From contig QPGO01000075.1 of NCBI GenBank assembly GCA_008632985.1, positions 2,517 through 66,516 of the forward strand: a DNA stretch of 64,000 bases, given 5' to 3'. Below the pieces are notes generated by a model. That model did no database searches and had not been told where the DNA came from. It saw nothing but the letters and a program-made list of their open reading frames with translations. This document shows positions 1-64,000 of the stretch, piece by piece. The translations under genes were made by a program, and so were the position numbers. Every line of letters begins with the position of its first letter. The first letter of the stretch is position 1. Source of the DNA: Psammoneis japonica (lineage: Eukaryota).

Positions 1-1413
1 ATGTCAAGGGACAATGGAATGAAAGCTCTTGCCAAAGCGGCTGTTGTGGCTTCCCGAGAAGAGAATGAGGAAATCCGGTTGTCACAGGAGGAGAACAACC
101 ACAATTCCCAGGAAGAAGATGTGGAAGAAGAGGAGGAGGAAATGCCGGAGGAAATGCGGACGTCAGAGGAGGACAAGGAAGCTGTGAATTCTAAGGAAAT
201 AGACAATGATGCTTCTCAGGAGAAGAAAGATGCAGGTTCTTTACCAAAATCATCAAAATCCAAGGAGGGGGACATTCAACACATTCCCACCAAGCTCCGG
301 CGTTTCGTGAATGCAATCAAACATGACGTGTCAAAGCATGTGCGGGACAATGTCCACCGCACTTGTTCCTTGTTTGCCGTGGTCAACCCAAGCACAGAAC
401 CAAAATCACTGACAACACTGGCAAATTCTGGACGCGGGCCGAACAATCGCGGGAAGAAATGCATTTTGTTGCATCACAACCAGAAGGGGTTGTCATCCGA
501 CTTCGGCAAAGAAGCAAGCAAAAAAGCAAGGGCAGCTGTAAAGGATTTTCTTCTTCGTGAATTTAATCAAGAAAACGAAGGCGACATTGTCGACTTGTTG
601 AACAACAAACACACTCACATTTTGGGAATTTGTGCAATGCCAAAAAATCAAGAAAGTGGCAAACTGGCAACTGATCTTGTCACTGCATTGTTGTGTCGGT
701 GCATTGAATTGGTGCCAGCAACAATTGTTGACCATGTTCGAGTCGACAGAGGAGCCAAAGTGCACGACCATGGGTTGTGCCCCTTCCTGATTAGCCTGGC
801 TCAATCTGTCGGCTGCACGGTTGTTGGCACTTGGGACACAATGCTGCATTGTCAAGTCAAGCTCAAACAATGCCACTGTGAAAGTTTGGGTTTCGAGGAC
901 ATCACAGAGGAAATGAATGAGGAGCCCTCTTGGGAAAGAGTGAGACACCATTGGAATTGGAGTGCTTTGATCAAAGAGGACGGAGATGACACTGGGGCAC
1001 TGATGGTGAAACGCAGAGTCACCACACGTTGTGCAAAAATTGCGTTGCCCATCTCTCACACAGAGGATGATTTCCAATGCAATGTAAAACATTGGCGAGA
1101 TCGTGTTGGGTTCTGGAGCAGCAAGAAGAGACCCGCCGATCAATGCCAAGATTTGGTGGATCAAGAGAAAGACCTCATCTACAAATCGTCAGTGGTGATG
1201 GTTGGCAATGCGACACTGGATTCTTTTAAAGATTCCTGGCAAAAACACATGGATGGACGCCAATGGTTTGACATTGGAAAGTGCATTTACGAATCCTACG
1301 AACATTGCGTGGGTGCAAGTGACGCCAACCAAGTTAAGTCACATTTCGAGACAATGGCTTTGTTTGCCGCAAGCATCAATTTCTCCCCACCAAATGAGCA
1401 AATTGGCAAATGA
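1..1413 (+). pseudogene. Element-borne ORF (possibly 5'-truncated by the window) with an acidic N-terminus and a GNAT acetyltransferase-like segment, TpA-mutated
   Basis: 470-aa ORF. The segment IVDHVRVD...HDHGLCPFLISLAQ...MLHCQ...CHCESLGFE resembles GNAT motifs A/B once C/H are read back as Y (e.g. YYESLGF). Lies in a TpA-depleted domain. Confidence 0.4.
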
Positions 1414-1529
1414 TGAAACATGGAAAAGAGCGGCGTTTCGATCAAGGACTTCCGAGCTGGCTCAAAGAGCGAAATGTGTGAGGGGCAAGTTCAACGCAAC
1501 TGCGGAGTCGGGAACTGACAACCGGAAGC

Positions 1530-3401
1530 ATGTTCTCAACCCCAAGTGTCACCCAACGGAGTCGGAGCGATTCAGATGAAGACATGGAAATGGAAATGCC
1601 TTTGGGTGATGATGGAGCCATGTGTCAACTTCTTGAAAGCATCCATTTGAAGTGCAACACGTGCAACATGCTGTTTCCCATCGATTGCAACCAGGAAGAT
1701 CAAGGTGGACTGTCACCAGCAGCAACTTTGTTTTCAGCGCTTGCGGGACCTCACTGTGATCATGCAATGTGTGTTCCGGGCAAGTGCCCCATTTGCACTG
1801 CACAAAGCAAAAGTGCAGTGTACGAACTGCTGGCTGGTGCTGCACAAGAAGACAGAGAAACTCTGAAGGACCCAGAGAAACGCCAAGTGCGGTTGAACAA
1901 AAAGGATTTCTTTCTGCCACCTTTGCGACACATTGCAATTTGGTGCAAAGAAGCGGAACAACTGCATTGGCACCAGATCAATCGGTTGTTCCGACAACAT
2001 CGTTTTACAGAGCTGGCGAAGGAGGCGATGCTTGACAAAAAATTCTCTGCCAGGGGAAACAAGAGAGAAAAGAAGGAACCAAAACCACAAGAGGGAGATG
2101 GTGACCCAGAGGAAGAGGAGTCCGAATCGGAACCAGAAGATCAAGGTCTCCTTGTGTCACGAAGAAAAGTGTTGTCTGCCAGGGACAAGAAATGTCAAGA
2201 TGTACGTCATGAGGCGAGGATGCACTGTGAGGATGCCAAAGAATTGGAACGGCCACATGGTTTTGAGTGGGTCGATCGGGCCACACGGCCGGATGAAAGT
2301 GAGGTGCCAGGTGATGCTGTTGATTGTGAAGGACCAGTTTTACATGGATGGTTCAAAGATTTCAAGCATGGCAGAACATTTGCTGAAGACTGTTTTGGAG
2401 CGACGAATGACAAGGACATTGGAGGAGGGCCGATGAACCTTGTTCGAGCCGCAATTGAGGAAGCTAAAAAGAAACCTGACACAAGAGTGATTTTCAATGC
2501 CAGACAAAAGAGGCAAATTAGCAAAAGAGCTGATCACGCAACAAACAATGGTCAGGTTCACAAAGTGAGACGGCTGACAGCAAAGGAGCTGACAAAGGAG
2601 GGGCTTGTAGCTGATGATGATTTTGAAGGTCCGGAGGGAACGCCAGCATTCGTGGGGGTTGGCACAAGGAAGAAACCGTGCCATTGCACCATGGAGTGGG
2701 CAAGAGCCAATTTTCAGCAGCGATGTCCCACAGTGTACAAGGCCATGTGTGATTGGGAACCAGGGAAGAAATGTTGCAGACTGCCGGAGGGTCACGTGTT
2801 GGATAAAAGCGGGCTGGAATTTCCCAGCTCGGGACCCCCAGTCAAACATCAACAAGGGGAGAAAGACACGTGCGTGTTTTCGAGCCTGGCCAGTGTCCGA
2901 AATTACATTGGAGATGAAAGGATGGAGCGACACATTGTGAATTACATGGGTCATTCTTGCAGATCAGAGAACACCAGCAACAAATGGTTGGAGTTCGCCA
3001 TTGGCATGTTGTCGGGACAAAAGCAGAAGCTTTGTCCTCCACTGGCTGCATCAATGAAGTGGCACGCATGCAAGAAGTGTCAGAAAATGGCAGCTGGCAA
3101 GAGGGGATTCTTCGATTTGACCACCTGCATTGCCGATGACATCGTTCTTTGTTGGTTGACAAACAATCACTGCACTGCTTTGCATGGTGGTTGGATCTTC
3201 GACTCCAATCATGAACTCGCTCTTCCGGCAAAAGACATTCAGTGGTTGAATTGGTGTTTGGGGAATGACACATTTGAAGCAGATGCACTGGCAGAAGATC
3301 CAAAATCAGCAGTGGAGGAAGCAGTTTTTTTCGAAATGCCGAAGGCTGTCCAAACAAGGTTGCGTAAACGCAAGCGGCAAGACAATGCAGTTGTGGGTTA
3401 A
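1530..3401 (+). pseudogene. Element-borne ORF with an N-terminal Cys/His cluster and a C-terminal papain/C39-like cysteine peptidase domain
   Basis: 623-aa ORF. QQGEKDTCVFSSLAS...NNHCTALHGGWIFDSN gives a Q-C...H-D catalytic-type arrangement. May be the frameshifted continuation of 1..1413. Confidence 0.4.
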
Positions 3402-4743
3402 TTCTTCTTACTTGGCATGGTTGTCGGGGCCAACGATTTCCAGGCATGCAGGCGTTTGCGAGTCACCAATGTTTTGCTGACAAGCCCGGCCTTTTCTGCA
3501 GCACGCAACAGTTGGCACGTTTGCGGCAGTGCACAAGGCTTCCCACCAAGGACATTCATCATGAGCCCCTTAGTTTGAAAACACGTGCCCGCGGGTTGAT
3601 CCGCAAAATGACTGAGCAATTCATGTGTGCCACTCATTTCCTCGTCCGTGTGCGGGTGCACGTTTAACCAACAGCGGCATCCATCAACGATGCATTGGCT
3701 CACAAGAGGCTTCGTCCACTGATTGTGCTTTTGGACTTTCACGTTGTCCAATGGGGTGGCGCAAAGCAAAGGAAGGAAACGATTCTTGGTCGCTGGCATC
3801 AGATCACTTCGTTTCACAGGAGCAAACACAAGCAAGCTGCTGCCCCACACATCTTGCTCTGTCACTTTGAGTTTCTTTAGGACAGTTTGTCGACGCTCGG
3901 CTGTGAGATAAAACTGTGAAGTTGCAGTCTTCCATGTCATGATGATTTGTTTGCAATCCATGCCCGTGGAGGCACCACGATTGGGAAGAGATGATGTCAT
4001 GCTGCAAAACCGATTGCAATGATCGGGTTTTGCTAAAACTGTGCCAGCTTGCAGCCATTTGCCCATGGCAACACAGGCAACAGCATCAACAAAATGCTTG
4101 GGTTTAGTCCGCCTGTCACAATTTCATCAACAACAATCTTAAAGGAATGGTGGTGAGCCAACCGACCGAGAGATTCTAGAAAGTTGTCGCTGAGTGTTGC
4201 GCCATTGTTTGCCAGCATCAATTCTAAAAACAATGCAGTGATTGGCACCTTCTTTACAGCCTGCATCAAACAACGGAGATGAATGTGGTTGAGACAATCG
4301 TTTTCGCACTCACTGAGCTCCGCGGAGCTCAGAGTGCCTGGCATGTGATGCGGCAGCGCAATGGTGTGATTGCGTGTAAAAGAGTTAAACACGTCGTCCG
4401 GATGCATTGCCGCGCTCGGACCATGTTCTGCACTGAACATGCTGGCAGTCCAACAGTGGATGGGCCCATGATCACCGGCCACATAACTTCCACATGCAAT
4501 CAAACATCCGTCGTTGTGCCCTCCTGTCACAGAATCAATTGCAAACAAATTTGCATCGGAGCTGTTTGGCATCACTTTGTACAGCAGCAATTCACCATCA
4601 AAGTGACGAAAAATGACTTCTTCCAACTGCTTGTGGTGGCCGATGTCCATGGAAGAATTCATCAAATCTTCGCCATTGCGTTTTAAGCCACGTGGGCTAA
4701 CGGCAACCAAATTGCACCCCCAATTGTTTGCCATGTCGTCCAT
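3398..4743 (-). pseudogene. Class-III (PLP-dependent) aminotransferase-like gene, frameshifted near 4108
   Basis: ORF 4033..4743 has FLELMLANNG...KIVVDEIVTGG. The other frame continues DAVACVAMGKWL (PLP lysine) into ORF 3398..4066. Confidence 0.6.
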
Positions 4744-5621
4744 GGCGTCGTTTGGGATTGTTCAATGCGCAAAAGAGCAAGATGCAAGATTCAAGAAGAG
4801 TCCCAAAAGATGATTGGATGGAAAAGAGGGGAGGGATCGCAGTTCTGTTGATGGGCTTGCGCAGCGCAGAGGATTTGTGAAAATGAGGTGGAGCAACGCA
4901 TGTGCTCTCAATCACCAAAAGCGCAAAACACGTGCATTCTGCTGCACTGCGCATTTGCAGACAAGCCCTGTGCGCAGGGCCCCACACATGTTCCACACGC
5001 TGAAAGAGCAGCATGCACGCGCGCATGCACTCCCACCCAATCGTGTGATTGCACAATGCATTTCATTCAACAACGTAGATGAAGCGAGCACTTTAAAAAA
5101 GAACACACATGAAAAATCAAACTTCAATTGTGGAAAATCATGCATTCAAAAGTGAACCAATGAGAACCCAATTTTTGTTTAAGGAAAATTTTGTTTCAAA
5201 TGGGAGGAAAGAACAATCTTCTTAACACAACAGGTTGACATGGTTGTCAATGTTCATTTCAGAACAACAATGCTTGATTGAAACAATGAAAAACACAGAA
5301 AAGAACAAAACTGAACACAACTCAAAAACCGTGCAATGAGAACATGCAACCGTGACTTTGCAATTGTGTCAAACAGATTCGGCTCGTCCCGGACCATCCA
5401 CAAGTATAAAAAGCGATTAGAAGTCGAAAACACAATGACGAATTCATTTCATCAGACACAGGTGTCGGTCGTCAGCCTTGATCTTACAAACACATCGAGG
5501 GCAAACACTTCAACAGAGGGAAACACAACCCCGTCAAGGACAGATGTTGCAACAGCGGGGAACACAGGCAGGTGCATTTGAAATCGAAGTGTGCGTTTGG
5601 AAGCTAACATTGTGATCTGAC

Positions 5622-8383
5622 ATGCAGTGGGAAGCTTCCACAACAAATCCAGGGGAAAAAATAACAGCACCCAATCGTCCATTGGATCATCCAAGAGACT
5701 TTTTTCATCCAACAACAGGGGCCAACCCCACAAGACCAGAGGATGCTGCTCTTTTGTGGTCACACCGAAAGGCACGTCCACAACTTGGTGAGGTGGAGAC
5801 GGTGCCGCCCAATGGCAAGAAGATGCTGCAAGAGGTGGCACAAATCCGGTCGTCCCTTCGACAACACATCATGACTCAACACCTGGAGGGCTGTCGGAAA
5901 AATGCAATGGACAAGGAAGTGGCAATGCCATCAACAAACACCAATCCCGTCACAACAGAAGACTTCAAAAACATTCTGGCAAGCATGGACAACACAACCG
6001 AGAATCAGCAGCTCGTGCATCAAGTTTTCCACGCCTTTCATCGCAACAGAGGATGGCTGGCTGCTGCCATTGACAAATGGTTCACCGCAAACAACATGAA
6101 GCTCATGCCGCACGCCACAGACGCTTCCAGCAAACCTCGCAAAATGTGTCGCGATGACAGAGGCGGGTTCACTGTGGTGGCACGCCAAGCCAAATGTCAA
6201 ATAATTAAAACGTTTGTGGAGTTTATGCTGCGGAAAGCAGGCTGGTGTGTGGCAACTACAATGCACAAGAGCAACAAGGAGAATGGAGGTAAAACATGTG
6301 TGGCCGTCCCCGCTGCAACCAATGTGGAAACAACAACCAAAGCAAAGTTTTACATCGTGTCGATGAAACCAGTGGCGGTGAGTTAGTCGCACATTGTTTG
6401 TTTGTCCTTTTGTTGACAATCTTGTTTGGTTGACGACTTCGTTCCCATTTCCGGTCCTTGACAGCAGGAGGAGAACACCGAAGCATCAAAACAAGTTGCT
6501 CAGGGAGCATCCAGCAAAGACATTGACATTGCATCCCTTGTGGACCTTGCAAAAACAGCAAGCATGTTGTCAGAACAAATGGGAGTTCTGCTGTCCAAGG
6601 AAGATTTGCTCCAGTCGATTCGTGGCAGCATGACAGTCACCAGTTCATCCCAAATGGTCAACGAAGAGATTGTGCTTGATCCGCAACATGAGTCCGAAAC
6701 TCAGGTGTCAACACTGACCATGGACACCACACTAAATTGCCCATCTGAACCAACGGCAAAGCGGAAGTTAACCGAGAAGGAGAAGGAGGCAGAGCAAATT
6801 CCTCGTCGGGAGCGCAATGATGAACTAGAACCCCTCACCATGGATTTGGATGTCATCGATGGTTGGAATTCCAATGACGAAGAGTTGGCAGAAATGGCGT
6901 CACAGGTGACTGTGTGATTTGGTGGTCCAATTGCTGTGGTGTTGGATGGCTCTAACCAACTTCCGCTTTGATGCCTTGTTTGGCTTGTCAGACACAGTTG
7001 TCTGGGTCCCCTTGTTGCAGGACGGAACAAGAGCCCGGGAACGCTCCAGCGGCAAGAAAAATGCATTGTGTCATGCGGCTGAATTGCACGTCGCTCACAC
7101 CACTGTTCTTCATGCAAAAGGTTGATGAGATGGACGAGCCAACTGGTGCAAAAGAAAAGGTGAGAGCATTGTCGGTGCTCCAGCTGTCAATTTGGACTGT
7201 TGCTCTAACAGCTCTTTGGCCTCATTGGGTTGCTGGATGCCACACCAAACCATCCCAGATGGTTGAAACACTGGAGCGAGCACAAAAAAAACAAGTGAGT
7301 GAACAGAGTTCTGAGGCAGAGCGCGACACATGGATTGGATCAACCAGTCACACTGCTCCTGCTGTTCTTTATGACCAGGCAAATGAGGTGGTTGACAGTG
7401 GCAACAATGAAAAGGTGAGAGCAATGTCGGTGCTCCAGTTGCAAATGAAACAATTGCTCTGACCACTTTGGGGCGTCATTGCTGGATGCCAGACTCAACC
7501 ATCCCCAGTTGCTGAAATGCCAGAGAGAGCACCAACAGAAGACGGCAAGATCACATTGTCTTGCAGCCAATTGTGCAATTCATCGGACACGTCTCACACA
7601 GCCGTTGTTGTTTGCAATGAGAAAGGTCGAAGAGACAATGGCAAATGGCGCAAATGAAAAGGTGAGAGCATTGTTGGTGCTCCGGATTGCCATTGAGAAG
7701 TTGATCTAATGGCATTCAATGTGTGTCATGATGGCATTTCTTTTGCAGACTCAACCAGCCAACCACTCTAAACCATTGTTAAATCCATTGCAAAACAAAG
7801 CGGTGAGAATGCATGATGAAGTCATGTGGATTGTGCGCAGTGTCTTGGAAACATCACCTCTCATTTTGTTGTTTGTTTGCAACAAAGACAAAGACAGCAA
7901 ATGGCAAACGCACACACAAAACTGCAACACTCGTTGTGGCTCAAGTGGATCAAACAACTGCTTGCAATTCACAGGTGCAGAGCAAACGTCATTGTTGATT
8001 TGGCACGCCTGTTGTTGTGTTGTCTTGTTTGCGCACGCAAACCAATTGTGTTTGTTTGTTTGTGTTTGCAGTGCAAGTGTGAGGAGGCTCACTTGTTCCA
8101 TGCCTTGGTCCATCAAGATGACGGAAAACACTTTGCTCAAGCGTGCTTCAAAACCAACCCACTGTTCCCCACAAAGTGCTGTGGCGAAAAGTGTGATGTT
8201 GTTTTTGGATCAAGCAGTTACAAGATTGGACAAAGAAAGGCAGTTTGGGTTTGCATGAACGCATTGAATGGTTCTTGCAATTGCAGGTTTGCATTGTGTG
8301 TGCAGTGTCATCAAAAGACCATGTCAGCTGCATCCAACAAACGGTGCCGAAGGACAACCCGAAACAACAACAACAAACAATGA
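5622..8383 (+). pseudogene. Multi-exon hypothetical gene of the element, ending in a Cys-rich putative zinc-binding domain
   Basis: ORFs 5622..6386 and 6540..6917 join in frame via a GTGAGT..CAG intron at 6378-6464. Repeated GTGAGAG donor-like sites follow. The 3' part has CCGEKC...CMNALNGSCNCRFALCVQC. Exon structure beyond 6900 is uncertain. Confidence 0.35.
7154..7760 (+). repeat. Three diverged ~250-bp tandem units, each with an intron-like segment
   Basis: GAAAAGGTGAGAGCA(T/A)TGT(C/T)GGTGCTCC at 7154, 7409 and 7656, each followed by a CTAA/CTGA branch-like site and related downstream sequence. Confidence 0.7.
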
Positions 8384-8519
8384 GGCAACGCAACACATGC
8401 GCACGACGCAACACAATGTGCAATTGCTTGGGATTGATTTCACCGGCACAGTCAGGGTTCGGCGGATGTGTTTGTCAACAGAGTCAATCGAAGCACAGCT
8501 TCGCAAATGACAGTTGTTC

Positions 8520-8959
8520 AGAGCATCAGCAAATTTGTTCATAGTTATGATCTGTTTAAATGGAGAGGCTGTCGTCGTCCGTTGTTTATTCAGAGCTTTG
8601 CTCTAGTTAAATGTCCGTTGTTTATTCAGAGCTTTGCTCTAATTAAATGGAGATTCCACGGGCATCCAAACATTATTCAGAGTCGTGCTCTGATTGAATG
8701 GACACAATCACAGCAGCGCTCTGAATGTCAGCACAATGCTCTAATTTACAAATTAATGCTCTGGATACAATGCTCTAAATAAAATTCTATGGCTCCGAAT
8801 AACCAAATTTACTCTGATTGTGCTCTGCGTGGGCGTTATCGCCTTTTAATTAACTCTTATTTGCTCTGAATGTCCCACATTGTGTCGGGATAATTTAAAT
8901 AAAGCGTTGCTCAGAATAAAATATTCGGAGCATAAATGAAGAGAATCTCATCTGCAGTG
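8520..8959. mobile_element. Right terminus of a large DNA transposon (CACTG end, CMC/EnSpm-like) with subterminal short repeats; the element probably spans the window start to 8959
   Basis: Many copies of GCTCTGAAT/ATTCAGAGC-like motifs in both orientations over 8520-8935. Sequence ends ...CTGCAGTG at 8959 (reverse complement CACTGCAG) just before host-type sequence. The left end and any transposase are not in the window. Confidence 0.5.
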
Positions 8960-48966: not shown

Positions 48967-48969
<3 letters not shown>

Positions 48970-48999: not shown

Positions 49000-49001
<2 letters not shown>

Positions 49002-49039
49002 TCTAGAGAGGAAGCAACGGTGTATGTGCTCATTTCTAT

Positions 49040-52400: not shown

Positions 52401-52720
52401 GCATGCTTGGGTTCTGCAGTTTCGGATAATTCTGGCAACCGAAATTTAACGGTGCAGTCGTCAGACGTGCCAAACGAGCCTGCTGCCGTGGTCCAGTTTG
52501 TCTCAGCCATTGAATGGCTTCGCAGACGTTCACAGCATCGACTGTCGAGCAGAGCACTGCCAGCGCCACCATCTGGTGGTGCCTCAATGGTTTGAGTCTT
52601 GCCCTTGCCATGTTTGGCATTCACAGCCACAAACAAGATTGGAGTGAGATGAGTCTTTTTAACTCGTTTGCGGGATTGGCCTACAACACGTGTACGATGG
52701 CAATTCAGTTGTTCATTCAC
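49439..52720 (-). pseudogene. pol: pol (protease, reverse transcriptase, RNase H, integrase) with an in-frame TGA at 51695-51697
   Basis: SQWAAPSF, RFINDFRELN, LPMGL, HLDD (for YLDD), DAS..LGAV, ERELLA, VADALSR, DRG..F and VERVH. The two ORFs are in the same frame, separated by one TGA (probably from CGA). Confidence 0.93.
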
Positions 52721-52768
52721 ACATTCATCTGATGTGTTAAAACTGCCTGTGTTGTGTCGGCCCCCTTC

Positions 52769-53812
52769 TCAGGCGTCCGAATCTTCGGAATCACTTAAGT
52801 TGAGGTCACGGAAGTGATTGAGCTCCTCCTCGCGGGCCTTGCGCTTTTTCTGAGCGTTGGCAAAACACTCCTCGACCTTCGATCCGATGAGAGCATCAAT
52901 GTCTTCCTCATTCCGAGGTTTTGCATTGGGCTTGCCGCCTCCGTCATTGGAATGTCCAGTCTTGACACGTTTCACGTGGTGCTCAAGCTGACGGCAATCT
53001 TCCGCATCATGTCCACAGTCAGTCCCGTGTGGCATGCACGACTTCTGGGTGTTCCGCTGGGTCGTGATCAACGACTCAGGATTGTCCATTCTACGTCCCT
53101 GCTTACGTGGAACCTCAGCATGTTGGTCCTGGTTACCTTCGGCAAGCTCGACCTGCTCGATGCGCTCGCAGAACTGTACAAATTCGGCGATGGCATGCGC
53201 CAACGGGTCAAAATTCTGTAGCGTCATGAACTTCTGCCATGCGTTCGGCACACCGCACTCGAACATGTCGCACAGTTCGTCATCAGGTGATGGTGCCGGT
53301 GTTTCTCCATCCTCCATCACGGGTGGAAACTGAGAGATGCAGCCGTTAATTTCAACAGCCCTCGCGACGCAGTCACGAGTAGAAACCTCTGCGGGCTTGC
53401 GCATGAAGCGCCGCAGATGACGCTTCTGCAGCAGCACCGCCCCATTTGGGAAGATGCTTTCCTTTAGCTTCGCGACGCATGCTGCGCACGCAGCGTTGGT
53501 TTGGGACGCCTGCTTGTCAGCGGCATCATCAAATGACGTCAGAGCATCGCCCTGTAGTGAGTCACGCATGAGGGCAAATTTCGCTGGCCCGGTCGTGATG
53601 TTTTGTCCTTCGTGCACGCGATCCACGTTGCGTGGAAAGATTGGGAGTGTCTCGCATGTAGCCGCAGAAAGGTGCGGGATGCCCATCTCTTGCGTTGGAC
53701 TGTCCGGATCAGTGGGGTTGTTACACAGCTTGTATGTCTGGTGCTCGCCCTGCTGCAGCTCTTTCTTCTCTGGCCATGCGAACAGAATCGGCGGCTCAAT
53801 CCGCTTCTTCAT
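52769..53812 (-). pseudogene. gag: gag-like ORF
   Basis: ORF between the 5' LTR and pol, with QKRHLRRFMRKP and a CxxHG..GH....C knuckle-like motif. Confidence 0.75.
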
Positions 53813-53906
53813 GGTCGTTTTGAGATTTGTCGGTCCCACCAACATTTCGTAGTTTCGTTTCTGTAGATTTCATTGCCTTGCACAACATGCGGGAGTGATG
53901 TCACTG

Positions 53907-54338
53907 TGCCCCATGCATGTGCCAGGCGCTGAAAAAGAAGATGTGTTGCGACTTTGTCGTTGTGAAAATTGTGAGCTGGTTTAGAGTAGAGAAAATGGGA
54001 TCGTGCGAATGGGGAATCTTGCCAAATCCCTGTTCGTTCGCATTTGGATCGCATTAAATCGATCGTGCGTTCGCATTGTGGATCGTGCGAATCAAGCCAT
54101 CACGCGCCATGCACGAGTGATGTCATCGTGTGGAATCACGCCACCATCGTGGGCCAGACGATGGGCTAGTGTGCTTCACACGGATGCTCTCTTGGCATCC
54201 TTCTGGAATTGCCTGAGACCTGGAGCCATGCCCTCCTGTGGTCGTGCTTCCCAGGTGCGTGTTAACAACTCTGCGTTGCCACGCACAAGAGGCTCATGCA
54301 CGGTCTCGCCGTGTTGTCCAGTGGCGAGGCATGCTGCA
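53907..54338 (-). repeat. 5' LTR
   Basis: Match to 49040-49471. Confidence 0.92.
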
Positions 54339-54619
54339 CTGTTCTCTGATTGAAATGCCAGCACACAACATTCGTGCCGGGCCAACACATCCAAAAAAAT
54401 CCACCCTCGGTTCTACCCTGTAGAGAGCAGCACTCATCCTGTGGGGAAGAAGACCAACCCGTGGCCATCAGTGGAGAAGCTACGTGCTAGCAATCAACCT
54501 GCGCAAACCCCACACGAGGAGTTGAACCCGAAAAAAAACTCCAAGACGAAGCGAGCGACGCTCAAAAAACACCGCGCCGTCACCTTGACCATGGCCTTTG
54601 AATGCCCGTAGTTCTGCTC

Positions 54620-55350
54620 GGCACCCATTGCAGCAAAGGTGTGAATGCCAACATTGACTGATGAGACTGTGAAAAAAATGATGCTTGCTTTGGATTTTTT
54701 GCTTGCCCTTGCCTTTTGGGTGTTTGATGACTTTTGCTGCAAGAGAGGAAACACGCGGCGCCACCGCGTCGGTGACAGCAGCGTTGACATTTCTGCTCGG
54801 TGATTTGAGGACAAAGGTGAGAATGCCAATGCTTGCCAAACTTAGCTGTAAAAATCGCATGGTTGTGTTTGCACTCATTGCAAAGCCCGCATTTTGGGCG
54901 TTTGATGCTTTTTTCTGAGGCACAGCTTTTCTCTCACTTTTTCCATTGTTTTGTGGTCGCTCACAGGTCTGCCCGGCACCCATTGCAGCAACGGCATGAA
55001 CACCGCTACGGATTAACATGACTGTGGAAAAAAATGATGCTTGCAGTGGATTTGTTGCTGCTCCTCACCTCTTGGGTGTTTCGCGACTTTTGCTCCCAGA
55101 GAGGACACTGACAGGACTGCCGCGTCTGACACAGTGGCATTCACAATCAAGCTCAGCTTCGGACTGCAAAGGTGAGAACAACAAAATTTGCTAACAATGA
55201 TGTCGAACATGTGATGGAAATGTTTGTTTGTTGCACACATCTCATGTTTTGTGCGTTTGATGATTGTCAAGTGTGGCGCAGTTTTTTCCTCACAGTTTCT
55301 CCTGTCTCGCCGTCGCTGACAGGCCCACTCGGCACCCATTGCAGCATGGG
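54620..55350. repeat. Diverged ~355-bp tandem repeat (2 units plus the start of a third)
   Basis: GGCACCCATTGCAGCA at 54620, 54975 and 55331; ACTGTG(G)AAAAAAATGATGCTTGC near 54666 and 55021. Confidence 0.8.
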
Positions 55351-56310
55351 CGCCAAGGTGAATACGGACCAAATAGTTATAAAAAAATGCACCTCAAGCC
55401 AAGGATGCGGAACAATCTGTTTAAAGATCAACGGCAGCAACCCTTGGTCGTGCCTTCCGCGCTGGGGAGCAGCTTGTTTTCTTCTCAAGCTGGTGGAAGT
55501 GCAATGAGGTGCTGATTGTTCCTTGGGCTAATGCAATTGTTTAGTAACATTTAAATATAAAATTCACAACAGTGATCTCAAACAGGTGCTTTGGAGCTTG
55601 TCAAAGTTGAAAGCAGTGCAAGTCGTTCGTCTGCTTTCCCACAGGGAGTGTGAAGGTTTCTGCTGCACTCAGGACGCCTGTGAGTGCTGCTTGCCATGCC
55701 ACCATAGATGCAGTTGGCATTGGTGCAGTTGCCGGGGTTGCATGCGGCAACGCTCATGGTTGAGATGCCGCATTGAGACGAGTAGAACTTTCGAGTATTT
55801 TTTTTGTTCCTCCCGTCGCACTCGACATCACGCACCAAGGACAGACTGTTTAGATCGCGCGAAAGGGGCGCGCAGGGTAGAATTTTTGGCTCCGAAAATT
55901 CTACTGTGCCTTCTACCTGAGTGGAATAAACAGTGGATGTACGGTAGATCTTTTTAGAAGATACTAACACCGTATTGTCATTTTTACATACGAGAATTCC
56001 ACTTTCCAGTAGAAAAATACTCCTTGGGTAGAATTTTGGGTGTAACGGTACGGTACTCTACACTATCTACTATCCGCGAGTCGTACCCGCGACCAAAGCA
56101 AATCTTCGAAGTTCACGCAGTTCAACAATGAAAAACGTGTACGGTAAATCAGGGAGCGGGTGTTCGATGATGTTCGATTGCGAAGATGCAGAGATAGAAC
56201 AACCGCGGACGTTGCTTTTCCCATTAGACCTTTGATAAAGCTTCTCTTGGAGCGAATCCAAGAGCTAACCTTTAGCAGTAGCAGAGCTGTTCGGAGTTGG
56301 AAAAGTAACG

Positions 56311-57426
56311 ATGAAGCTTCTTCAAAGTTTTCGTCTGTTCTGTTTTTCCATGCTGCTTCTCTTTTCAAGCATGACGGCAATTGCAACCAACAACAACTGC
56401 AGTCCAGAAGAAGGAACATGTCCAGTGTACGATGTTCTTGGTGAACCATCTGAGTTCACAGAATCTACCACCGGAGTCAAGTTGGCGGTTCGTCGATGGG
56501 TCCCGGAGGACATTAAAAGCGCCATCTTGTTTGTACATGGTGGAGCTGGATGGCACACTGGATATTCAGAGATCATGGGTAGATCTATGCAAAAGGCTGG
56601 TATCGCCGTTGTCGCGTTTGATAGCATAGGTAGCGGATACAGTGAGGGCATGAATGGCGGTTTGCGAAATTATTTCGATTCAATCGACACTCTCGTCAAT
56701 GATGTCACAATGATGATGGACAAGGTGCGATCCGAGTACCCAAACAAGAAAGTTTTCTTGATGGGGGAAAGCTTTGGATGCTTTGTGCTTATATCGCAGA
56801 TATTAAAGGAGCAAAAGAGTCCGGACGGAAGTCTGGCGGATGGCTACATTTTTACGGGCCCCGTGGTCAAGATATTACGTAAGTCCGTCTTTGAAAATGC
56901 ATCGTTTGCAAACCTCATAGAGCCGCCATGGCCCGCTCACTCTAACATTGCTACTTATCATCTTTACTGTAAAGCCGAGATGCTACCACCCAGACCCGTC
57001 ATTGCGGTTCTAAGGTTTCTGGCACGCTTTTTCCCAATGCTCACCACACCCGGTACTGACTTTTTCAGTACGTTCGACCTGGCTTTTGGGGACAAGGGCT
57101 GGGCCCAAACAGGACGGAACGATCCAATGATTCAGGAAGCAGCTATTGCTCCACCCAAAGTGGGGATGGCCGCGTCTGTCCTTACATATATGAACAACAA
57201 TTATGACTCGTTGCAAGAGGTTAACGTTCCTTTCAAAATATTCATGGGAGAGAACGAGCTCCGCGTGGATGTAGAAGCTGTGAAACACTTTGCGAGAGTG
57301 GCTTCGTCCACTGATAAGGAAATTGAGATTATCGAGGGTGGTTATCACCAGCTTTTCCAAGATGTCCCTGAAGTTACTCAACAAGTGTGTCAGAAAACGC
57401 AGCAGTGGACATTGGCTCGTTCCTGA
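56311..57426 (+). CDS. Alpha/beta hydrolase, monoacylglycerol lipase/lysophospholipase-like, with a signal peptide-like N-terminus
   Basis: LFVHGG, DSIGSGYSEG, GESFG nucleophile elbow and GGYHQLF. In-frame intron at 56879-56974. Confidence 0.88.
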   Translation: MKLLQSFRLFCFSMLLLFSSMTAIATNNNCSPEEGTCPVYDVLGEPSEFTESTTGVKLAVRRWVPEDIKSAILFVHGGAGWHTGYSEIMGRSMQKAGIAVVAFDSIGSGYSEGMNGGLRNYFDSIDTLVNDVTMMMDKVRSEYPNKKVFLMGESFGCFVLISQILKEQKSPDGSLADGYIFTGPVVKILRKSVFENASFANLIEPPWPAHSNIATYHLYCKAEMLPPRPVIAVLRFLARFFPMLTTPGTDFFSTFDLAFGDKGWAQTGRNDPMIQEAAIAPPKVGMAASVLTYMNNNYDSLQEVNVPFKIFMGENELRVDVEAVKHFARVASSTDKEIEIIEGGYHQLFQDVPEVTQQVCQKTQQWTLARS

Positions 57427-59488
57427 CGAAAGAATAGAGAAGTAGACGCGTTTATGGGATGTCAGCTAGAGGGCATTATAGTGGACTTATTCTTATTGCT
57501 TTATCTGTCTTTAGCTCCCATGTAGGGTCCATCTCAGCATGTCTCTAGAGAGCCGCAAGAGAGCAGGAAAATTAGAAGAATCAGTGGGATGTCAACATGA
57601 CTCAGACACAATTGAGCATGACCAACATTGTTTTGATGAACCGAGGCAAGGTTCAACATTTAGACAAAGCATTGTCTCCCTCTCCCACACAATCATTTAA
57701 TTTTTTTGACATGATGCTGAAGATCCAGTGCATCACCCATGATGTCTCAAACCCTCACAAACTGTTTTGCACCTCTTTGCATCTGATGCAAAAGTCCTGC
57801 AACTTGATCATTGCCGCACGATGGCAGGAAAGCACAATCATTTGATTCCCACAGCTGCAAAAGATGCACAGGTTCAATGGATGCTGTGATGATGCATGTG
57901 ATTGTTTGTGGTGCTGGGATTGCTGGTTTTTTAATTGCCCAATTTGCACCACTGCCCAGACCTTTGGTGTGGAGTCATGGTGCTGGAACAATGCAACAAC
58001 AACAAGACCAGCATGGAGAAAGGTTTGCAAGGCACAGACAGCCCACCACAATCCAAAGTCAACCACAGCTCTTTTTGGGGTGCTGGTCCATGGTGGGTCA
58101 GCTTCTTGATTGGCAATGACCACATGCACATTGAAATGGCTTGGAAAACATGGCAAAACACAGATGCAGTGTTGTCCAGCACAAAGATTTGGTGTGGGTG
58201 TGGTCAGAGAAGTCTGCATTTTGGGGTGGCTTCCTTTTGGTTTTGGGTTGGAACTTTGTGCTGGTGTTTGTCAAACATTTTCTGCATTGGCACCACATTG
58301 TGGGCAAGGGCTCCATCAAGGAATTGCAGTTCTTGCAGCGGGTGGGGTGCACAGTTGAGAAAAATGGGGGTGCCGCAAGTTGGACTTCCAAAACAAGGTC
58401 ATTGGGAATGGCTGCACAGGAATTTTTGCTGGCAAGAATGAGAGTGCTGCCTTGCACACAGACACACAATTCTGGGGCACTTGCTTCTTGCGGATCAAAA
58501 GAGTCTCCAATTCGGGTGCTGATCTAAAGTGACTGCTGTTGAAAAAATGAAAATGGCATGTCGCGCATGTCTGTGTGCTGCAAGATGGCATGAGAGGGAG
58601 TGCTTGCTGCAGGGCCAAAATGTTTGGCTCTAGCCAGCAAAACAGTCCAGAGCTCAGCAGCAGCTGAGCCTGCTGCAATCCAGGCCACCAGATGTGAGCC
58701 AAGAATGAGTGCTTTGCCTGCCCTGCATGTTGGCTGCTGGAAGCACCACAAAGCACAAAGATGGTTAAATCTGCCACTGCACCACTTGGCCTTGTTGGGG
58801 CACCAGCCAACTTTCATGTGGGTTTCCTGCCAATCATGAGCCAAACACACACCAAAGAACAATGAGAACCTTGCCCAGCTGTCTGCTTGGGCATTTGGGC
58901 AAGAGATTGCACAGGAGAAGAAATGAGAAGGAACTTAAAATTTCTTTTGTGGTCAGGGCACAGTGGTGCACATTTTTCAAACCTGGCCAACTTGCAATTT
59001 TGCCACAGACTGGCGATGGCCTGCATCCAACAGCTGGGCTTTCCACCAGTTCTTGATGAGGTGAAGTGCCATGATGAGCCAATCAGAGCCCACTCCTGCA
59101 ATTTGCAACACTCTGCTCATGAGGCAGCATTGCCCCCGGTCCATCCTGCCATCAAATGGCATGACAAAAAAAAACAGAGCTGTTTTTAAGTGCCATCACT
59201 CCTTTGCCAGCTGGGCTGGTGCCGGCTGACCCACACTCCCAGTGCACAGTTAAGTGTGGCAGAAGCTTGCGCTGGATCAGCCGGGGTGGGCATCACCAGA
59301 AGATGACACCCCACCAAGATGACTGAAAAGGAATGATTCACACGAGGGATTTGTTGCACGCTTGTTGATGACAGCCACAAAAGGCACACCACAACTGCAA
59401 CGGACAATTGCACTCAGATGGGTTTTTAAAACAGTCCACAAAAGGAGCCTTGAAGGTGAGACGAGCAGGTCATTAGAGAAAATGTTCT

Positions 59489-59960
59489 TGACACGTAGAA
59501 ACAACACTGAGTCTTGCGTGGAAAAGCCGATGAGAGCAGCAAACCAAAGACCATCAAATGGCATCACAGGACAACTTGCATTCTTGCTGAAAAGGGCTGC
59601 AAAAGAAGCAGCACATTCACCACAAAGAGCGAAGCACTTGATTGCACGGTGGAGAAAAGAAGAGAGGTTGAAGACCGATTGGCAAGGACAAAAGCAGTCC
59701 AGAGAAGTGACACACAGACAGTCAGAGGTGACACGTAGAAACAACACCAGATCTTGCATGGAAAGACCAACGGGAGTGGCAAATTAACAACAATCAAATG
59801 ACTCCAAAGGACAACCAATGTTCTTGCTGAAAAGGGCCGCAACAGAAGTGGTGCTTGCACCATAAAGAGTGAAGGACTTGATTGCATGGCAAGGAAAAGA
59901 AGCAGCATTGAGGACCAATTCGCAAGGACAAAAGCAGGCCAGAGAAGTGACATGCAGCAG
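59489..59960. repeat. 240-bp tandem duplication
   Basis: TGACACGTAGAAACAACAC at 59489 and 59729, with shared TTCTTGCTGAAAAGGGC and GCAAGGACAAAAGCAG blocks. Confidence 0.85.
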
Positions 59961-60411
59961 ATCGTCCGGCATCTGCAGATCCGCGTAGAATTTGCACTAG
60001 AACCTGTGTAGAAAATTTTCTGAGACAACAGAAAATTTCAAGAAATGACAACCAGCACACGAACCAAAAGGCCGGGACACTCGTCGTTTTTCCACTGATG
60101 AACTTTGCTCATCATGCTGCAACAAGGATGTGCCATTGGTGAACATGGACAGAATGGGCTTGTTGGAGCCAAATCAACACCATCTGAGAAGGGTGACATC
60201 AGTGCAAGAAGGTGCATGGAAACCTGCGCAGAAGCTGAGGGTGTGCAGCTGATGTCGAAAAGTGTCAAATGGCATGACAGAGCATGATCACTTCCCCAGC
60301 AGAGAAAGTGCTGCCTTGGGCCCAATTGCTCAAGCAGCCAAAGACATGGCACAAGAACCTGGGGAGGGCACCTTGGCATTGGATCAGCAATCTGCCAGTC
60401 TGTTTGGCATC

Positions 60412-60709
60412 ACTTGTTGCAAGAGGTCAGCACTCCTCTCAGACATTTGTGGGAGAAAATGAGCTCCAAGTGGACGTGGAAGCTGCAGATTGCTTTGCGA
60501 GAGCAGCTTCATTTCTTGCTGTCAAGGAAGTTGGCATTGTCCAAGAGCAGGTGTCCCCAGCATTTCCAAGATGTCCCAAAGTTGTTCAACAAGCACGCCA
60601 AAGTGCACAGCAGCAGAGATGCTGGCTTGTTCCTGACAAGAGAACAGAGAAGCAGATGTGCTCTCATCCTCTGTCTCGGGGCATGTCTGGAGAGCCATGA
60701 GAGAGCAGG
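60412..60709 (+). pseudogene. Decayed duplicate of the lipase 3' end and 3' flank (57206-57567)
   Basis: Colinear similarity: TTGCAAGAGGT, GAGCTCC..GTGGA, CTTTGCGAGAG, TTTCCAAGATGTCCC and GTTCCTGAC; peptide FVGENELQVDVEA vs FMGENELRVDVEA. Confidence 0.88.
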
Positions 60710-62026
60710 GTTGTCACTCTGTTTCTGGCAGAGAGTCGCCAAGTGAGATGAGTCAGAAAGACCAACCTGAGCTGTTGTGAATGTCAGCCAAGAATCCCAA
60801 GAGCTGTGGATGGCTGCTGAGATGTGAGAAGGTGTTCTCTGTGTGAAGCACATGTCTTCAAGAGAACCTCTGGCACAACATGGAATTTAAAGTGCATGCA
60901 CAAACTCTGAATTGCACCAACATGTCTTGAAAAGCTCAAGGGCACAAGCCACCTCCTGCAGTGCCATGAGGAACAGGTTGTTTGACATGATTTTTTGTTC
61001 TTGGAGGAGGGCATTTGCTGATTCTGCCAACACATTTGCAACAATGGAGATGGCAGCAAAAGACACACTTGGACATTGTAGAGGAGTGCTCCCAAAGCAA
61101 GAAACAGCACAGGGGACCCTGCATGAGATCCAAAAGCCACCTGCCACTGGCTTAAAAAAAAAACAGTGGATGCACAACATCACAAAAGGACCACAAGATC
61201 AAGCAACAAGCCCTGTGAAAGTGATGCCAGCTCAGGCAGGCATGCTCCCCCCCACCTCATTCATGACAACATCTTGCTGCCAGCAGGAGGAGGGAACTGC
61301 ACACCCATCTTTGATGGCAGCGCTGGACAGAAGCTGTCCAAGCAATGGCTTTGTCCATGTCAGCTGCACACCTCCTGCCTGGAATGCACATGCTGCAAAG
61401 TTCCAAGGCTGATTTGGTGATTTCCTTTGTTGCACAGCATTTCAGAGAGATGCAAAGCTTTTGTGCTGTGTCAGCCATGACTTGGGGTGGTGCAAAACCT
61501 CCCTCTCCATGAGCCAAGAAGAGAAGAAATCTGCCCCACTGAAAGATGCCCCAACAACAACACAAACAGCAAAGTCTGTTGCTTCCATGCTTGATTTGCT
61601 GCAGAGCTGCAGAGCTGCAAAAAAGTCAATCTCTTGTTGGAGAGAGCAACTTTTGGTTTTCTCATTGCAGCCAGCAAGTCCAAAACCCACACAACATTGG
61701 AGATTGCACTGCATTGCTGCAGACACATCCCAGCAGTCAGCACCTTTTGACAAGGGCAAGAGCAGCATGATCTTGTTTTGAAACAAGTTCAATGAGCACA
61801 GAATGAGCTGATCCATCATGATTGTCTGCCGCAATGCGGTGCACTGTGGTCAGGGAAAAAGATTGCTGAGGATCATGGCAACAAGACATTCTTGCACAAA
61901 CAATTGAGGTGTGGCCTTGTCTCCACAGCTTGCCCAAGCACAACAGCCCAAAGTCAGAAGTGCAGCAAGCCCCCCTTGACCTGATGTGTTGTCAACAAAG
62001 AAAGAGCATTGTTGAGCTGGGAGGGA

Positions 62027-63010
62027 TGTCAAGGCTCCTGCCACAACAGCCACAACCAAGTGTGGAATGCATCTTAATGCCTGCTTTTAAAGAAGCTTGC
62101 AGGTCCAGGGTGTGCACAATTCAGAGGAGCAGCACACATTGTGAAAGCTGTGCTTGCCTCTCTAAATTCTGTCAGAAGCTGGACATTGTGGGGTGGCAGG
62201 TCAGCACATGCACAGACAACTCTTCTTCACTGCACACTCTTGCAACTCTGCTGGCAGCAGCATGGCATTCAAAGGGATGAGGTCAAGATGAGAATTTTGG
62301 CAACTGACATCTCTGGGACTGGCCCATTGTGAACAAGCCATTGCCAGCTGGAAATGTCACAGGGCCCACCAGCACCCTGTTGGCAAGGAGCAAAAAAGGA
62401 GCATGAGATGTTTTTCAAAGCAACTGCTGCATGTCTTTTGCAGAGCAGTGCTGTTTCAACAAGTTGCTTTTAGAGCAAAGAGCATTGCTGACCACCCTCT
62501 GGCTCAGAATTCTTGCTTGTTGTGCATGAGAGCTGTCAAGGCTGCCACAGCAGTCACAACCAAGTGTGGAGTGCATTTTGATGCCAGCTTTTAAAGCAGC
62601 AGTTTGCAAGCCCAGGATGCACACAATTCAGAATGGCGCACTTTGTGAGAGCTGTGCTTGCCTTTCTGGGTTCTGCCAGAAAAGTCAGGCATGGGTCAGT
62701 GGGGTGTCAACACATGTGCACACTTGTCTTGCAGCTCCACTGATGACATTCAAAGGGATGATGTCAAGATGAGAATTTTGGCAAATGACATTTCTGAGAC
62801 TGGCGGCCCTTTGTGGATGAGCCATTGCCAGCTGGAAATGTCACATGGCCCACCGCAGCACCCTGTTTGCAAAGAGCAAGAAAGGGTCATGAGATGTTTT
62901 TTCAAGGCAACCACTGAACATCTTTTGTGGAGCAACGTTGTTGTTCAACAAGTTGTTCTCAGAACAAAGAGTGTTGCTGACCACCCTCTGGCTCAGAATT
63001 TTTTTCATTT
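62027..63010. repeat. ~500-bp diverged tandem duplication
   Basis: CACAACCAAGTGTGGA at 62051 and 62555; GTCAAGATGAGAATTTTGGCAA and GCTGACCACCCTCTGGCTCAGAATT each present twice. Confidence 0.88.
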
Positions 63011-64000
63011 GTGTGTGTGTGTGTGTGCATGGGCAAGTGCCAGATGGGCAAGTGCTGCTCACATCATCTGGGGGTGTCTCTCTTTTTGTGGGACCTTCTT
63101 GTTCACCAGGTTGTCTGCGCAAGAGTGGCAACGACAATCAACTCAGTGCAAAAAACCACCCTTCATGTGAACACCACACACAGCAGCACTGCCACACTCA
63201 ACAACCAACAACTTGCTCACATTGTTGCACATCTCTTGTTCCTCACTCCATGCTGGTCAGCGCCACCACAGGAAGAGCTGCTGGTGTTTGGACACAGTGT
63301 TGTCTCACTCTGAATTCAACAACTGCAATTTTTTTTGCAAGTGCAGCAGCAGATTTTGGAGTGCAGGTGTTTAGAAGATTGAAGTGCATCAACTGTTTGA
63401 TGTCTTTTCACATCCAATGCACATCATGTCCCACAGCTTGTTCATTGCTGCAATGTGAGTGTGCAAAAAAGTGCACCAGTGGCTTTTTTCTCTCTCAGCT
63501 GCACAAAAAATGTGCACACTCTTGTCAACTGGATGCTGGCAACACATGATTTTGTTTGTGGCATTGCTGGGGTTGCTCTTGGTGCTGCAATCACTGAAAC
63601 TTGTGCTGCTCTGGCCCCACAGTTTCAAGCTGGTGTGTGGGGATCTCTGGGGCAACAAAAGCTCTGCCAAGCAACAACAGCACATGGAGAAAGACATGCA
63701 AAGTGCAGGGGCTGGCCTGCTGCAACAGATTGGCTTGATTGGCAGCACCCACAAGTGAGCCAAAACAGCCAGAAAAGCATGGCACAGCAGCATTGCACAA
63801 CTCAAGAAGGATTTGATGATGGACATGGTGGCAGGAAAAGTGTGCACGATGTTTGCCCCACTTCCTTTTAGCTTGTTGTTTCTTGCACATTGTCACGCGA
63901 TCTCTTTTTTTGTTGCAGCATGTTTTCTTCACAAGTGTTGAAGAAACTGGGACACAAGCAAGGCTGTCAATTGGGCTGTTGGAAGGGATGCATGCACGTG

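Follow-up and report, generated by a model that had tools for sequence, protein, structure and literature searches.

Repeated, transposon-derived DNA of the diatom Psammoneis japonica probably owes its unusual composition to a process that changes the dinucleotide TpA to TpG or CpA at the DNA level and spares unique genes. The evidence comes from a stretch of 64,000 nucleotides, here called the window (GenBank assembly GCA_008632985.1, contig QPGO01000075.1, positions 2,517 to 66,516 of the forward strand), in which five domains have almost no TpA and are rich in TpG and CpA while the genes between them are of ordinary composition. That a real, targeted hypermutation of chromosomal TpA has taken place, of the kind recently reported for the chlorarachniophyte Bigelowiella natans (Mettrop et al., bioRxiv 10.64898/2026.01.13.699255), is in our view very probable. 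The complete explanation, with its restriction to repeated, transposon-derived DNA and the sparing of unique genes, we consider rather probable.

Composition of the TA-poor segments

The window was segmented with dinucleotide tables per kilobase and a two-state hidden Markov model (HMM) on the probability of A after T. The model returned TA-poor segments at 2-8539, 14164-18250, 21326-25667, 25921-28496, 46475-49002, 49409-55359 and 57581-63999, in which the observed/expected ratio (o/e) of TpA is 0.12, 0.03, 0.06, 0.12, 0.15, 0.20 and 0.07, respectively; the host segments of the window range from 0.57 to 0.66. Each TA-poor segment contains 8-69 TpA where 90-300 are predicted at the host rate, with binomial P values of 3e-19 to 9e-73. 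An earlier reading of the window (the original prediction) had described five TA-poor, TG- and CA-rich domains beside ordinary host DNA, and these are borne out by the tables, the model and the binomial test. A windowed count of TpA, CpG and TpG plus CpA, one of the checks it had proposed, was run within the 64-kb window and confirmed the TA-poor clusters. The limits of the five domains were matched as well, except that the fourth starts at 46.5 kb and not at 46.9 kb.

The o/e values of TG and CA in the TA-poor segments are 1.3-1.9 and are symmetric within each domain. Depletion is limited to TA, with CG affected in a subset, and AA, AT and the remaining dinucleotides are nearly unchanged. In a mass balance per dinucleotide position, a TA loss of 0.034 and a CG loss of 0.0196, together 0.0536, were set against a TG plus CA gain of 0.0613; 87 % of the gain is explained by the two losses.

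Tyrosine makes up 0.0-0.6 % of the residues encoded by open reading frames (ORFs) of the TA-poor domains, in which the content of His and Cys is raised; in host ORFs its share is 1.2-3.7 %. According to the genetic code, a change of TA to TG or CA never makes a stop from a sense codon. The long open frames in the TA-poor domains are therefore no sign of function, and those of domain 1 are open because TAA and TAG are absent.

Direction of the change

A Ty3/gypsy long terminal repeat (LTR) retrotransposon is located on the reverse strand at 49040..54339 and was recognized by its LTRs and by a frame for reverse transcriptase, RNase H and integrase. In this frame (49442-53869), the Pfam domains occur in the order RVT_1, RT_RNaseH_2, Integrase_H2C2 and rve. 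Only 4 of its 1476 residues are Tyr. Its two in-frame stops are TGA in each case, a codon that may arise through decay of CpG or in other ways. A HMMER search with the gypsy Pol sequence gave 97101 matches. For polarization by outgroups, 19 columns were used in which Tyr is present in at least 50 % of 148 gypsy Pol homologues. None of them holds Tyr in the window: 9 are occupied by Cys (codons TGY), 7 by His (CAY) and one each by Phe, Arg and Ala, while 220 of the 293 other conserved columns were retained. In a first pass with a 751-aa ORF, 0 of 11 Tyr columns were kept against 179 of 230 others (Fisher P 1.6e-7); the closest homologue, P0122, has Tyr at 9 of these 11 columns. As Cys and His are about equally frequent (9 vs 7), both strands must have been hit. 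Replacements of the A-to-G type at the first codon position were found after T in 7 of 14 cases, after C in 2 of 20, after G in 1 of 10 and after A in 1 of 15. Polarizing A-to-G changes by context, which had been suggested along with the original prediction, thus revealed the expected excess at TA (7/14 after T vs 4/45 after other bases). A weak comparison, of the integrase element described below with its single relative P0121 (approximately 30 % identity), showed that Tyr was kept at 0 of 15 positions, 6 of which are now His or Cys.

An α/β-hydrolase gene (Hydrolase_4; 56269..57426, forward strand), with normal TpA and 2.8 % Tyr, lies 155 bp outside domain 5 and is the unmutated partner of a fragment copy located within that domain. 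The copy (60409..60656, forward strand) matches the 3′ end of the gene with 71.6 % identity. Of the 9 TpA in the host segment, 4 are TG and 5 are CA in the copy, and no site shows the reverse; 9 of the 10 host CpG are now TG or CA. The outgroups, this host reference and the LTR pair treated in the next section are three independent polarizations. Read from the sequence, they agree in pointing to a change of TA to TG or CA, that is of A to G on either strand, and so uphold the direction that had been predicted.

Divergence of the LTR pair

The LTRs of the gypsy element (3′ LTR at 49040-49472, adjoined by a purine tract; 5′ LTR at 53907-54339) are 433 bp long and 95.2 % identical. They differ at 21 bases, corresponding to 18 events. 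At nine sites, TA of the 3′ LTR corresponds to TG (8) or CA (1) of the 5′ LTR, and the reverse was not observed; 5 of the 18 events concern sites of the CpG type. TA, CG and TG:CA sites together account for 17 of the 18 events, the remaining one being an ordinary transversion. Because LTRs are identical at integration, the differences arose in the chromosome. Judged from these few events, two dinucleotide-specific processes exceed the background by roughly two orders of magnitude. At comparable sites, TpA was lost in 0 of 14 cases in the 3′ LTR and in 9 of 14 in the 5′ LTR (P 6e-4). Most of the 3′ LTR together with 36 bp of flank forms a TA-normal island of 393 bp (49004..49396, TpA o/e 0.65). 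Mutation in place, after integration, is demonstrated for the gypsy copy only.

When strand clustering was tested, the LTRs showed 8 TG vs 1 CA (binomial approximately 0.04), while the Tyr columns are interleaved and TG and CA are symmetric per domain; some 500-bp windows are skewed between TG and CA (34/69, 71/38). Editing of cDNA should leave a TpA gradient along the gypsy element; such a gradient was looked for, and none was seen. The bases flanking the element (49036-49039 and 54339-54342) read CTAT and CTGT if the LTRs are assumed to end in TG..CA. They are a possible 4-bp target-site duplication with one TA to TG change, a weak indication that depends on the exact LTR ends.

Flanking bases and loss of CpG

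The survival of TpA in TA-poor DNA relative to host DNA was determined for all combinations of flanking bases, with both strands pooled. No ATAT is left (survival 0), and host DNA has 150 of them. Survival amounts to 0.02 for ATAC/GTAT, 0.03 for ATAG/CTAT, 0.06 for GTAC, 0.12 for CTAG, 0.13 for ATAA/TTAT, 0.22 for GTAA/TTAC, 0.23 for CTAC/GTAG, 0.48 for CTAA/TTAG and 0.60 for TTAA. This ranking fits one flank rule, which applies either to the +1 base (T>C>G>A) or to the -2 base (A>G>C>T); as the TpA step is palindromic, the two are indistinguishable here.

A CpG o/e below 0.4 was found in 16 of the 69 TA-poor 500-bp windows and in 0 of the 59 TA-normal ones, and values of 0.15-0.63 are characteristic of domains 1, 2 and 5. 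In 53 of the 69 TA-poor windows, TA is depleted and CpG is normal. The loss of CpG looks like a second, separate process of the 5-methylcytosine (5mC) deamination type, which has affected a subset of the same repeats. Diatom transposons are CpG-methylated.

Content of the TA-poor domains

Domain 1 (1..8539; TpA o/e 0.12, CpG 0.63) is without a recognizable protein family, and domain 2 (14164..18250) is a high-copy repeat with 8 TpA in 4087 bp (TpA o/e 0.03, CpG 0.38). Domain 3a (21326..25667) holds an element on the forward strand with an open frame of 1378 aa (21603-25736, Tyr 0.4 %). The N-terminal part of this frame resembles retroelement integrases (tblastn E down to 4e-10), and a laxer Pfam scan of pieces of the frame gave Integrase_H2C2 and rve, both under the cut-offs; a word-index search with the ORF gave 1 match. 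On sequence grounds, the region of 21.3-25.7 kb is an integrase-bearing element. A TA-normal island (25675..25913; 10 TpA in 239 bp, GC 0.385) separates it from the next TA-poor segment; this island is AT-richer and is located directly beyond the end of the 1378-aa frame. Domain 3b (25921..28496) has a TpA o/e of 0.12 and a normal CpG o/e of 0.96. A foldback or MITE (miniature inverted-repeat transposable element)-like hairpin is present at 27682-28530, with 212-nt arms that are 94 % complementary and inner 163-nt arms that are 99 % complementary.

Domain 4a (46475..49002) contains a 153-bp tandem array at 47655-48238 and carries short inverted homology to 17.4-17.9 kb. A Tyr-free open frame of 530 aa on the forward strand (46966-48555) consists in part of the 153-bp (51-codon) tandem repeats and has a sub-threshold Myb-like match near its end. 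TA-poor tandem repeats of 356 bp (54340..55359) flank the gypsy element. Domain 5 (57581..64000; TpA o/e 0.07) is nearly CpG-free (CpG o/e 0.15), comprises tandem repeats of approximately 240 and 490 bp, and includes the hydrolase gene-fragment copy. The remainder of the TA-poor DNA is made up of tandem arrays and of sequence without a family match.

A Pfam scan of 122 of the 157 ORFs of at least 90 aa that overlap TA-poor domains gave sub-threshold matches only; the 35 ORFs outside that scan were mostly the shortest ones or had been scanned earlier. The laxer scan of pieces gave nothing for domain 1, and Rfam had no match anywhere in the window. The coincidence of the domains with transposons and duplications of different classes, as originally proposed, was confirmed for the Ty3/gypsy element, the MITE-like hairpin and the gene-fragment copy. 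The label "DNA transposon" could not be verified, and the rest is without a family match.

Copy number and edges of the domains

The window was compared with contigs of the public run X1 that had been built by Logan, and the copy depth obtained in this way covers domains 2 and 3. The X1 contig depth is approximately 57 on host DNA and approximately 180-236 at 21.3-24.7 kb, that is, approximately 3-4 copies of the integrase element. Contig depths in domain 2 are about 2000-6000, and the summed depth of domain 3b is 3000-9000. Domains 2 and 3 are multicopy. At 17336-18002, the X1 depth sums to 63311; this very abundant short repeat has inverted homology with 46680-47068. The X1 contigs carry the bases of the window: a contig of 819 nt with single-copy depth in domain 2, for example, has 2 other letters. 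Confirmation in raw reads, which had been listed as a check, was obtained to the extent that the X1 contigs agree with the assembly, but they represent a single sample.

At three of the four edges of domains 2 and 3, the limits of the TA-poor DNA and of the repeat are within tens of bases of each other. The last TpA before domain 2 is at 14137, next to the end of a unique X1 contig at 14134, and the last one before domain 3 is at 21318, near the end of a unique X1 contig at 21340. Beyond domain 3, TpA is present again from 28502, near the end of the hairpin arm at 28530. These sharp edges and the contig depth support the predicted confinement to multicopy DNA with ordinary host neighbours.

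Relatives of the TA-poor elements

In 13 repeat pairs within the window, TG:CA double differences number 45 vs 26 for all other adjacent double transitions, which is as expected if ancestral TA (or CG) was resolved differently in each copy. Gypsy Pol sequences from which Tyr has been erased were also found in public run assemblies: P0172 and P0181 among the best 150 matches and, beside P0181, P0272 and P0286 among 120. All four have a Tyr content of 0-0.2 % and solely Cys or His at the Tyr columns. The same signature is present, then, in other public data. Three related Tyr-erased Pol sequences are concordant in the choice of Cys or His at 5 of 13, 4 of 8 and 4 of 8 columns, and this low concordance points to independent mutation after the copies had separated. 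Metagenome loci encoding relatives of P0172, which served as a control, have a TpA o/e of 0.50-1.18 in 17 of 17 cases, indicating that the TA-poor trait was not inherited from the transposon lineage. For P0181, no relative was present among the metagenome contigs.

Proposed mechanism and its implications

In the explanation favoured here, TpA would be converted to TpG or CpA, by a change of A to G on either strand, in repeats that have been integrated into the chromosome, and adjacent unique genes would be spared. An enzyme acting on DNA would deaminate the adenine of TpA; that this effector is a polynucleotide adenine deaminase is put forward as a tentative suggestion. A targeting step would guide the enzyme to silenced or foreign DNA. 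Elements would be disabled by mass missense: every Tyr would become Cys or His, and ATA, TTA, GTA and CTA codons as well as T|A at codon junctions would be altered. TA-containing signals such as TATA and AATAAA would presumably be erased too. A separate decay of CpG to TpG or CpA would act on a subset of the same repeats. Leads for the effector are paralogues of ADAT2/3 and two kinds of stramenopile deaminases: a family that combines a deaminase with SAM and a Tudor array, and LmjF36.5940-like proteins with a Rossmann domain (Iyer et al. 2011, PMC3239186).

It is conceivable, although on balance doubtful, that diatoms and chlorarachniophytes, possibly with the whole stramenopile-alveolate-rhizarian assemblage, share a dedicated TpA-reading adenine editor. 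Such an editor, fastest in ATAT and slowest in TTAA, would single out transposons and viral inserts with base-pair sharpness. These would be inactivated by mass missense without stops, and TpA-free non-coding repeats would be "immune" to it. Immunity of repeats without TpA would explain the continued multiplication of TA-free families.

If the favoured explanation is true, a newly reported mutational defence would be present in a second, distant and ecologically dominant algal group, which would speak for an old and widespread system as opposed to a peculiarity of one species. The diatom case is near saturation in ordinary transposons, which makes it testable by statistics on the many diatom genomes already published and by genetics in transformable diatoms. 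A DNA adenine deaminase, should this be the effector, would be without natural precedent in eukaryotic genome defence and of interest for base editing. There is also a consequence for annotation: the elements lose Tyr and TA motifs and keep long frames, so that they are overlooked in profile searches and may give rise to spurious gene predictions.

Several points weigh against this explanation. The island at 49004-49396 has kept its TpA though TA-poor DNA is present on both sides, an escape that is not predicted by a repeat-wide, an element-wide or a spreading rule of targeting. At the fourth edge, approximately 400 bp (17841-18250) have single-copy depth and are yet TA-poor (one TpA); they are either leakage past the repeat edge or an old unique relic. 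The order of flanking bases is unlike the anticodon-loop targets of ADAT2/3 or the neighbour preferences of ADARs. The ancestral TpA content of the unclassified repeats was assumed to be host-like. X1 may be the assembly's own sample, and reads from one sample or study are not independent support. Pfam scans of the window ORFs revealed no effector gene within the window, as had been stated in the original prediction.

The timing is a further point of this kind. When the TA-poor DNA of the window was compared with X1 contigs, the other copy had TA at 2 of the 32 listed differences, and 15 were of the CpG type (the 32 are those inside TA-poor domains among 40 listed of 159). Identical TG/CA choices are therefore common to many copies: several families lost TpA before their last amplification, or the TA-poor state spread by duplication or gene conversion. 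A transposon consensus already free of TA had been named beforehand as an outcome that would contradict the idea, and the copy-shared TA-poor state comes close to it. The Tyr columns and the relatives do show a TA-bearing ancestry, but many copies are alike in being TA-poor. A TA-free state before multiplication is compatible with elements that had nothing left to lose.

Alternative explanations

That the repeats were already TA-poor when they multiplied, either by inheritance from their masters or by selection of TA-free non-coding elements that escape a TA-directed attack or TA-targeting insertion, with hardly any mutation in place, is unlikely. The 2 of 32 listed copy differences that involve TA, the contigs that are at least 99 % alike at depths from 180 to thousands, and the approximately 3-4 near-identical TA-poor copies of the integrase element would all fit. 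After integration, however, the gypsy LTRs came to differ at 9 TA:TG/CA sites, all with the same direction of change, and the conserved Tyr columns imply ancestral TAY codons. The normal TpA of relatives at 17 of 17 loci and the independent choice of Cys or His in Tyr-erased relatives speak against it as well, and at best it would shift the timing for some families and leave the origin of the depletion unexplained. Changes made before integration would also be expected from editing of retrotransposition intermediates, either by an ADAR-like activity on element RNA or by adenine deamination of single-stranded cDNA in analogy to APOBEC3, with fixation at integration. This is quite improbable. 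The clearest case is indeed an LTR retroelement, its LTR changes are skewed (8 TG vs 1 CA), and strand transfer could in principle leave LTRs unequal. Editing of one strand gives one polarity, however, and Pol has both (9 Tyr to Cys plus 7 Tyr to His); editing of RNA would result in identical LTRs, and these are unequal at 9 TA sites. The foldback repeat, the tandem arrays and the host-gene fragment are equally depleted, the protected island extends 36 bp beyond the LTR into the flank, and the targets in B. natans are inserts of DNA viruses that mutate in place (10.64898/2026.01.13.699255).

Error-prone repair by a Y-family polymerase of the Pol-eta type, with its WA motif, or a poorly repaired TpA lesion in silent chromatin, is distinctly unlikely. 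The effect is confined to probably silenced repeats, and A:T to G:C transitions in the TA context belong to the spectrum of Pol eta, the motif of which is WA. The AA o/e, on the other hand, is 1.27 in TA-poor vs 1.14 in host DNA, and replacements of the A-to-G type were found in 1 of 15 cases after A vs 7 of 14 after T. Near-saturation (ATAT 0) and edges that are sharp to tens of bases are hard to obtain from diffuse errors, and the B. natans process is active in only some laboratory lines (10.64898/2026.01.13.699255). The chromosomal A-to-G mutator of the original prediction stands in so far as the gypsy LTRs show a DNA-level, post-integration process; its Pol eta (WA) candidate is disfavoured, AA being spared. 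A symmetric adenine modification at palindromic TpA in silenced DNA, which would convert to hypoxanthine as a counterpart of CpG methylation decay, is improbable. TpA is palindromic like CpG, the strands were hit equally (9 Cys vs 7 His), and the TpA and CpG processes share TG/CA as their sink. Nothing in the window bears on such a modification, though, and 6mA (N6-methyladenine) is found at ApT and marks active genes. We know of no TpA-specific adenine methylation in eukaryotes and, to our knowledge, N6-methyladenine does not deaminate faster than adenine. A sequencing or assembly artefact, in which modified or damaged TA bases in repeats are miscalled, is most improbable. The read evidence does stem from a single sample or study, which may be that of the assembly itself, and the platform is not on record. 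Against this, the bases of the window recur in the independently built Logan contigs of X1, with single-copy depth at the expected places; miscalls at a palindrome that affect both strands alike would yield conflicting TG and CA reads and no uniform call; Tyr-erased Pol sequences are present in other run assemblies, and the mutations of B. natans are heritable in mutation-accumulation lines (10.64898/2026.01.13.699255). GC-biased gene conversion was rejected because AA and AT show no depletion, and selection against TA because conserved Tyr would not have been erased by it.

Host genes in the window

A DEG/ENaC-type channel was identified with Pfam at 9.0-10.5 kb on the forward strand, where two adjacent ORFs (9064-10557) belong to the amiloride-sensitive sodium channel family (Pfam E 3e-22 and 2e-30). 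The DEG/ENaC family is mainly found in animals. Pfam also identified CPSF100/CPSF2 at 10.8-13.8 kb on the reverse strand; the best matches of this ORF have at most 62 % identity, and the named ones are from Cylindrotheca, Fistulifera and Bacillariaceae. A contig of X2, which is labelled "DNA?", skips 92 bases of this gene (12186-12277). These are bordered by GT..AG on the CPSF2 strand and constitute an intron; X2 is RNA-like. Over the TA-poor domains that were compared, X2 gave no coverage, a blank that carries no information on expression. Other Pfam assignments are a class-I methyltransferase at 18.7-20.0 kb, a nitroreductase at 20.4-21.4 kb and a giant DUF3638/DUF3645 protein on the reverse strand at 36399-45171. 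The gene for the latter consists of three consecutive ORFs of 758, 334 and 1828 aa, joined by introns or frame changes. The affinities of the conserved genes are those of a pennate diatom, and the relatives of the transposon proteins bear names from Mayamaea and Thalassiosira.

Comparison with known systems

Repeat-induced point mutation (RIP), known from Neurospora and other fungi, changes C to T, mainly CpA to TpA, which creates TA and stops, and it mutates both duplicates. The diatom case is similar in that dinucleotide-specific transitions disable repeats and leave a sharp-edged compositional footprint. Unlike RIP, the change is from A to G, it destroys TA, and stops cannot arise from it. 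In addition, no TpA is missing from the hydrolase gene as opposed to 9 of 9 in its fragment copy at a distance of 3 kb, and 0 of 14 sites were changed in the 3′ LTR vs 9 of 14 in the 5′ LTR. The decay of methylated CpG has TG and CA products in common with the diatom process and occurs in the same repeats, but TpA is removed here, which CpG decay cannot do. The earlier exclusion of RIP and of 5mC decay was therefore sound: the features of RIP were not found, and TA was lost with normal CpG in 53 of 69 windows. The designation "repeat-targeted reverse RIP", in contrast, is not established, as the unique gene partner is untouched, one LTR largely escaped, and the target in B. natans is single-copy.

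TadA, ADAT2-ADAT3, the A-to-I editing of mRNA in the sexual stage of fungi in which these enzymes are used, and the ADARs have RNA loops or double-stranded RNA as their substrates. As with these adenosine deaminases, A would be turned into I (read as G) with T or U directly 5′ of the A. Unlike in these systems, the change in the diatom is in chromosomal DNA and on both strands, and the order of 3′ neighbours (T>C>G>A, if the +1 rule applies) differs from the preferences ascribed to them.

The closest counterpart is the TpA-restricted hypermutation of integrated DNA of nucleocytoplasmic large DNA viruses (NCLDVs) and virophages in B. natans (Mettrop et al., bioRxiv 10.64898/2026.01.13.699255). 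According to the preprint, 230 of 231 mutations in two viral inserts in mutation-accumulation lines were A to G or T to C, and these were all on TpA. The rate in the inserts was approximately 1000 times the background, and mutations were seen in only some lines. TpA-poor, CpA- plus TpG-rich windows of 1 kb cluster in the B. natans genome, and TpA-poor coding sequences (CDS) are enriched in DDE and reverse transcriptase (RT) domains. An ADAT2-like adenine deaminase was proposed as the effector, and the activity of amphioxus and trypanosome ADAT2 on DNA was cited (10.64898/2026.01.13.699255). The text contains no mention of "diatom" or "stramenopile" and no treatment of flanking context (10.64898/2026.01.13.699255).

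The two cases are alike in that TpA alone is the target of A-to-G change, with TpG or CpA as the product depending on the strand, and in that foreign or selfish DNA is affected and the surrounding genome is normal. Depletion of TpA with a gain of CpA and TpG is the long-term footprint in both, in B. natans with the enrichment of DDE and RT CDS. They differ in the host, a stramenopile diatom here and a rhizarian there, and in the targets: in the diatom these are transposon-like repeats present in many copies, tandem arrays and a fragment of a gene, and in B. natans a single-copy viral insert. Depletion is near saturation in the diatom (TpA o/e 0.03-0.20), as compared with 0.45 for the NCLDV insert of B. 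natans (10.64898/2026.01.13.699255). Decay of CpG is superimposed on a subset of the diatom repeats, and a hierarchy of flanking bases is measurable in them. Rates in B. natans were measured de novo, while the diatom case is known from its sequence signature alone. The process had been thought undescribed in the original prediction, a view that no longer holds, as the same TpA-only hypermutation has been shown experimentally in B. natans (10.64898/2026.01.13.699255). For diatoms, literature searches revealed no equivalent TpA signature. The diatom case is a new and more extreme example of the recently described TpA hypermutation, in a distant lineage and in ordinary transposons.

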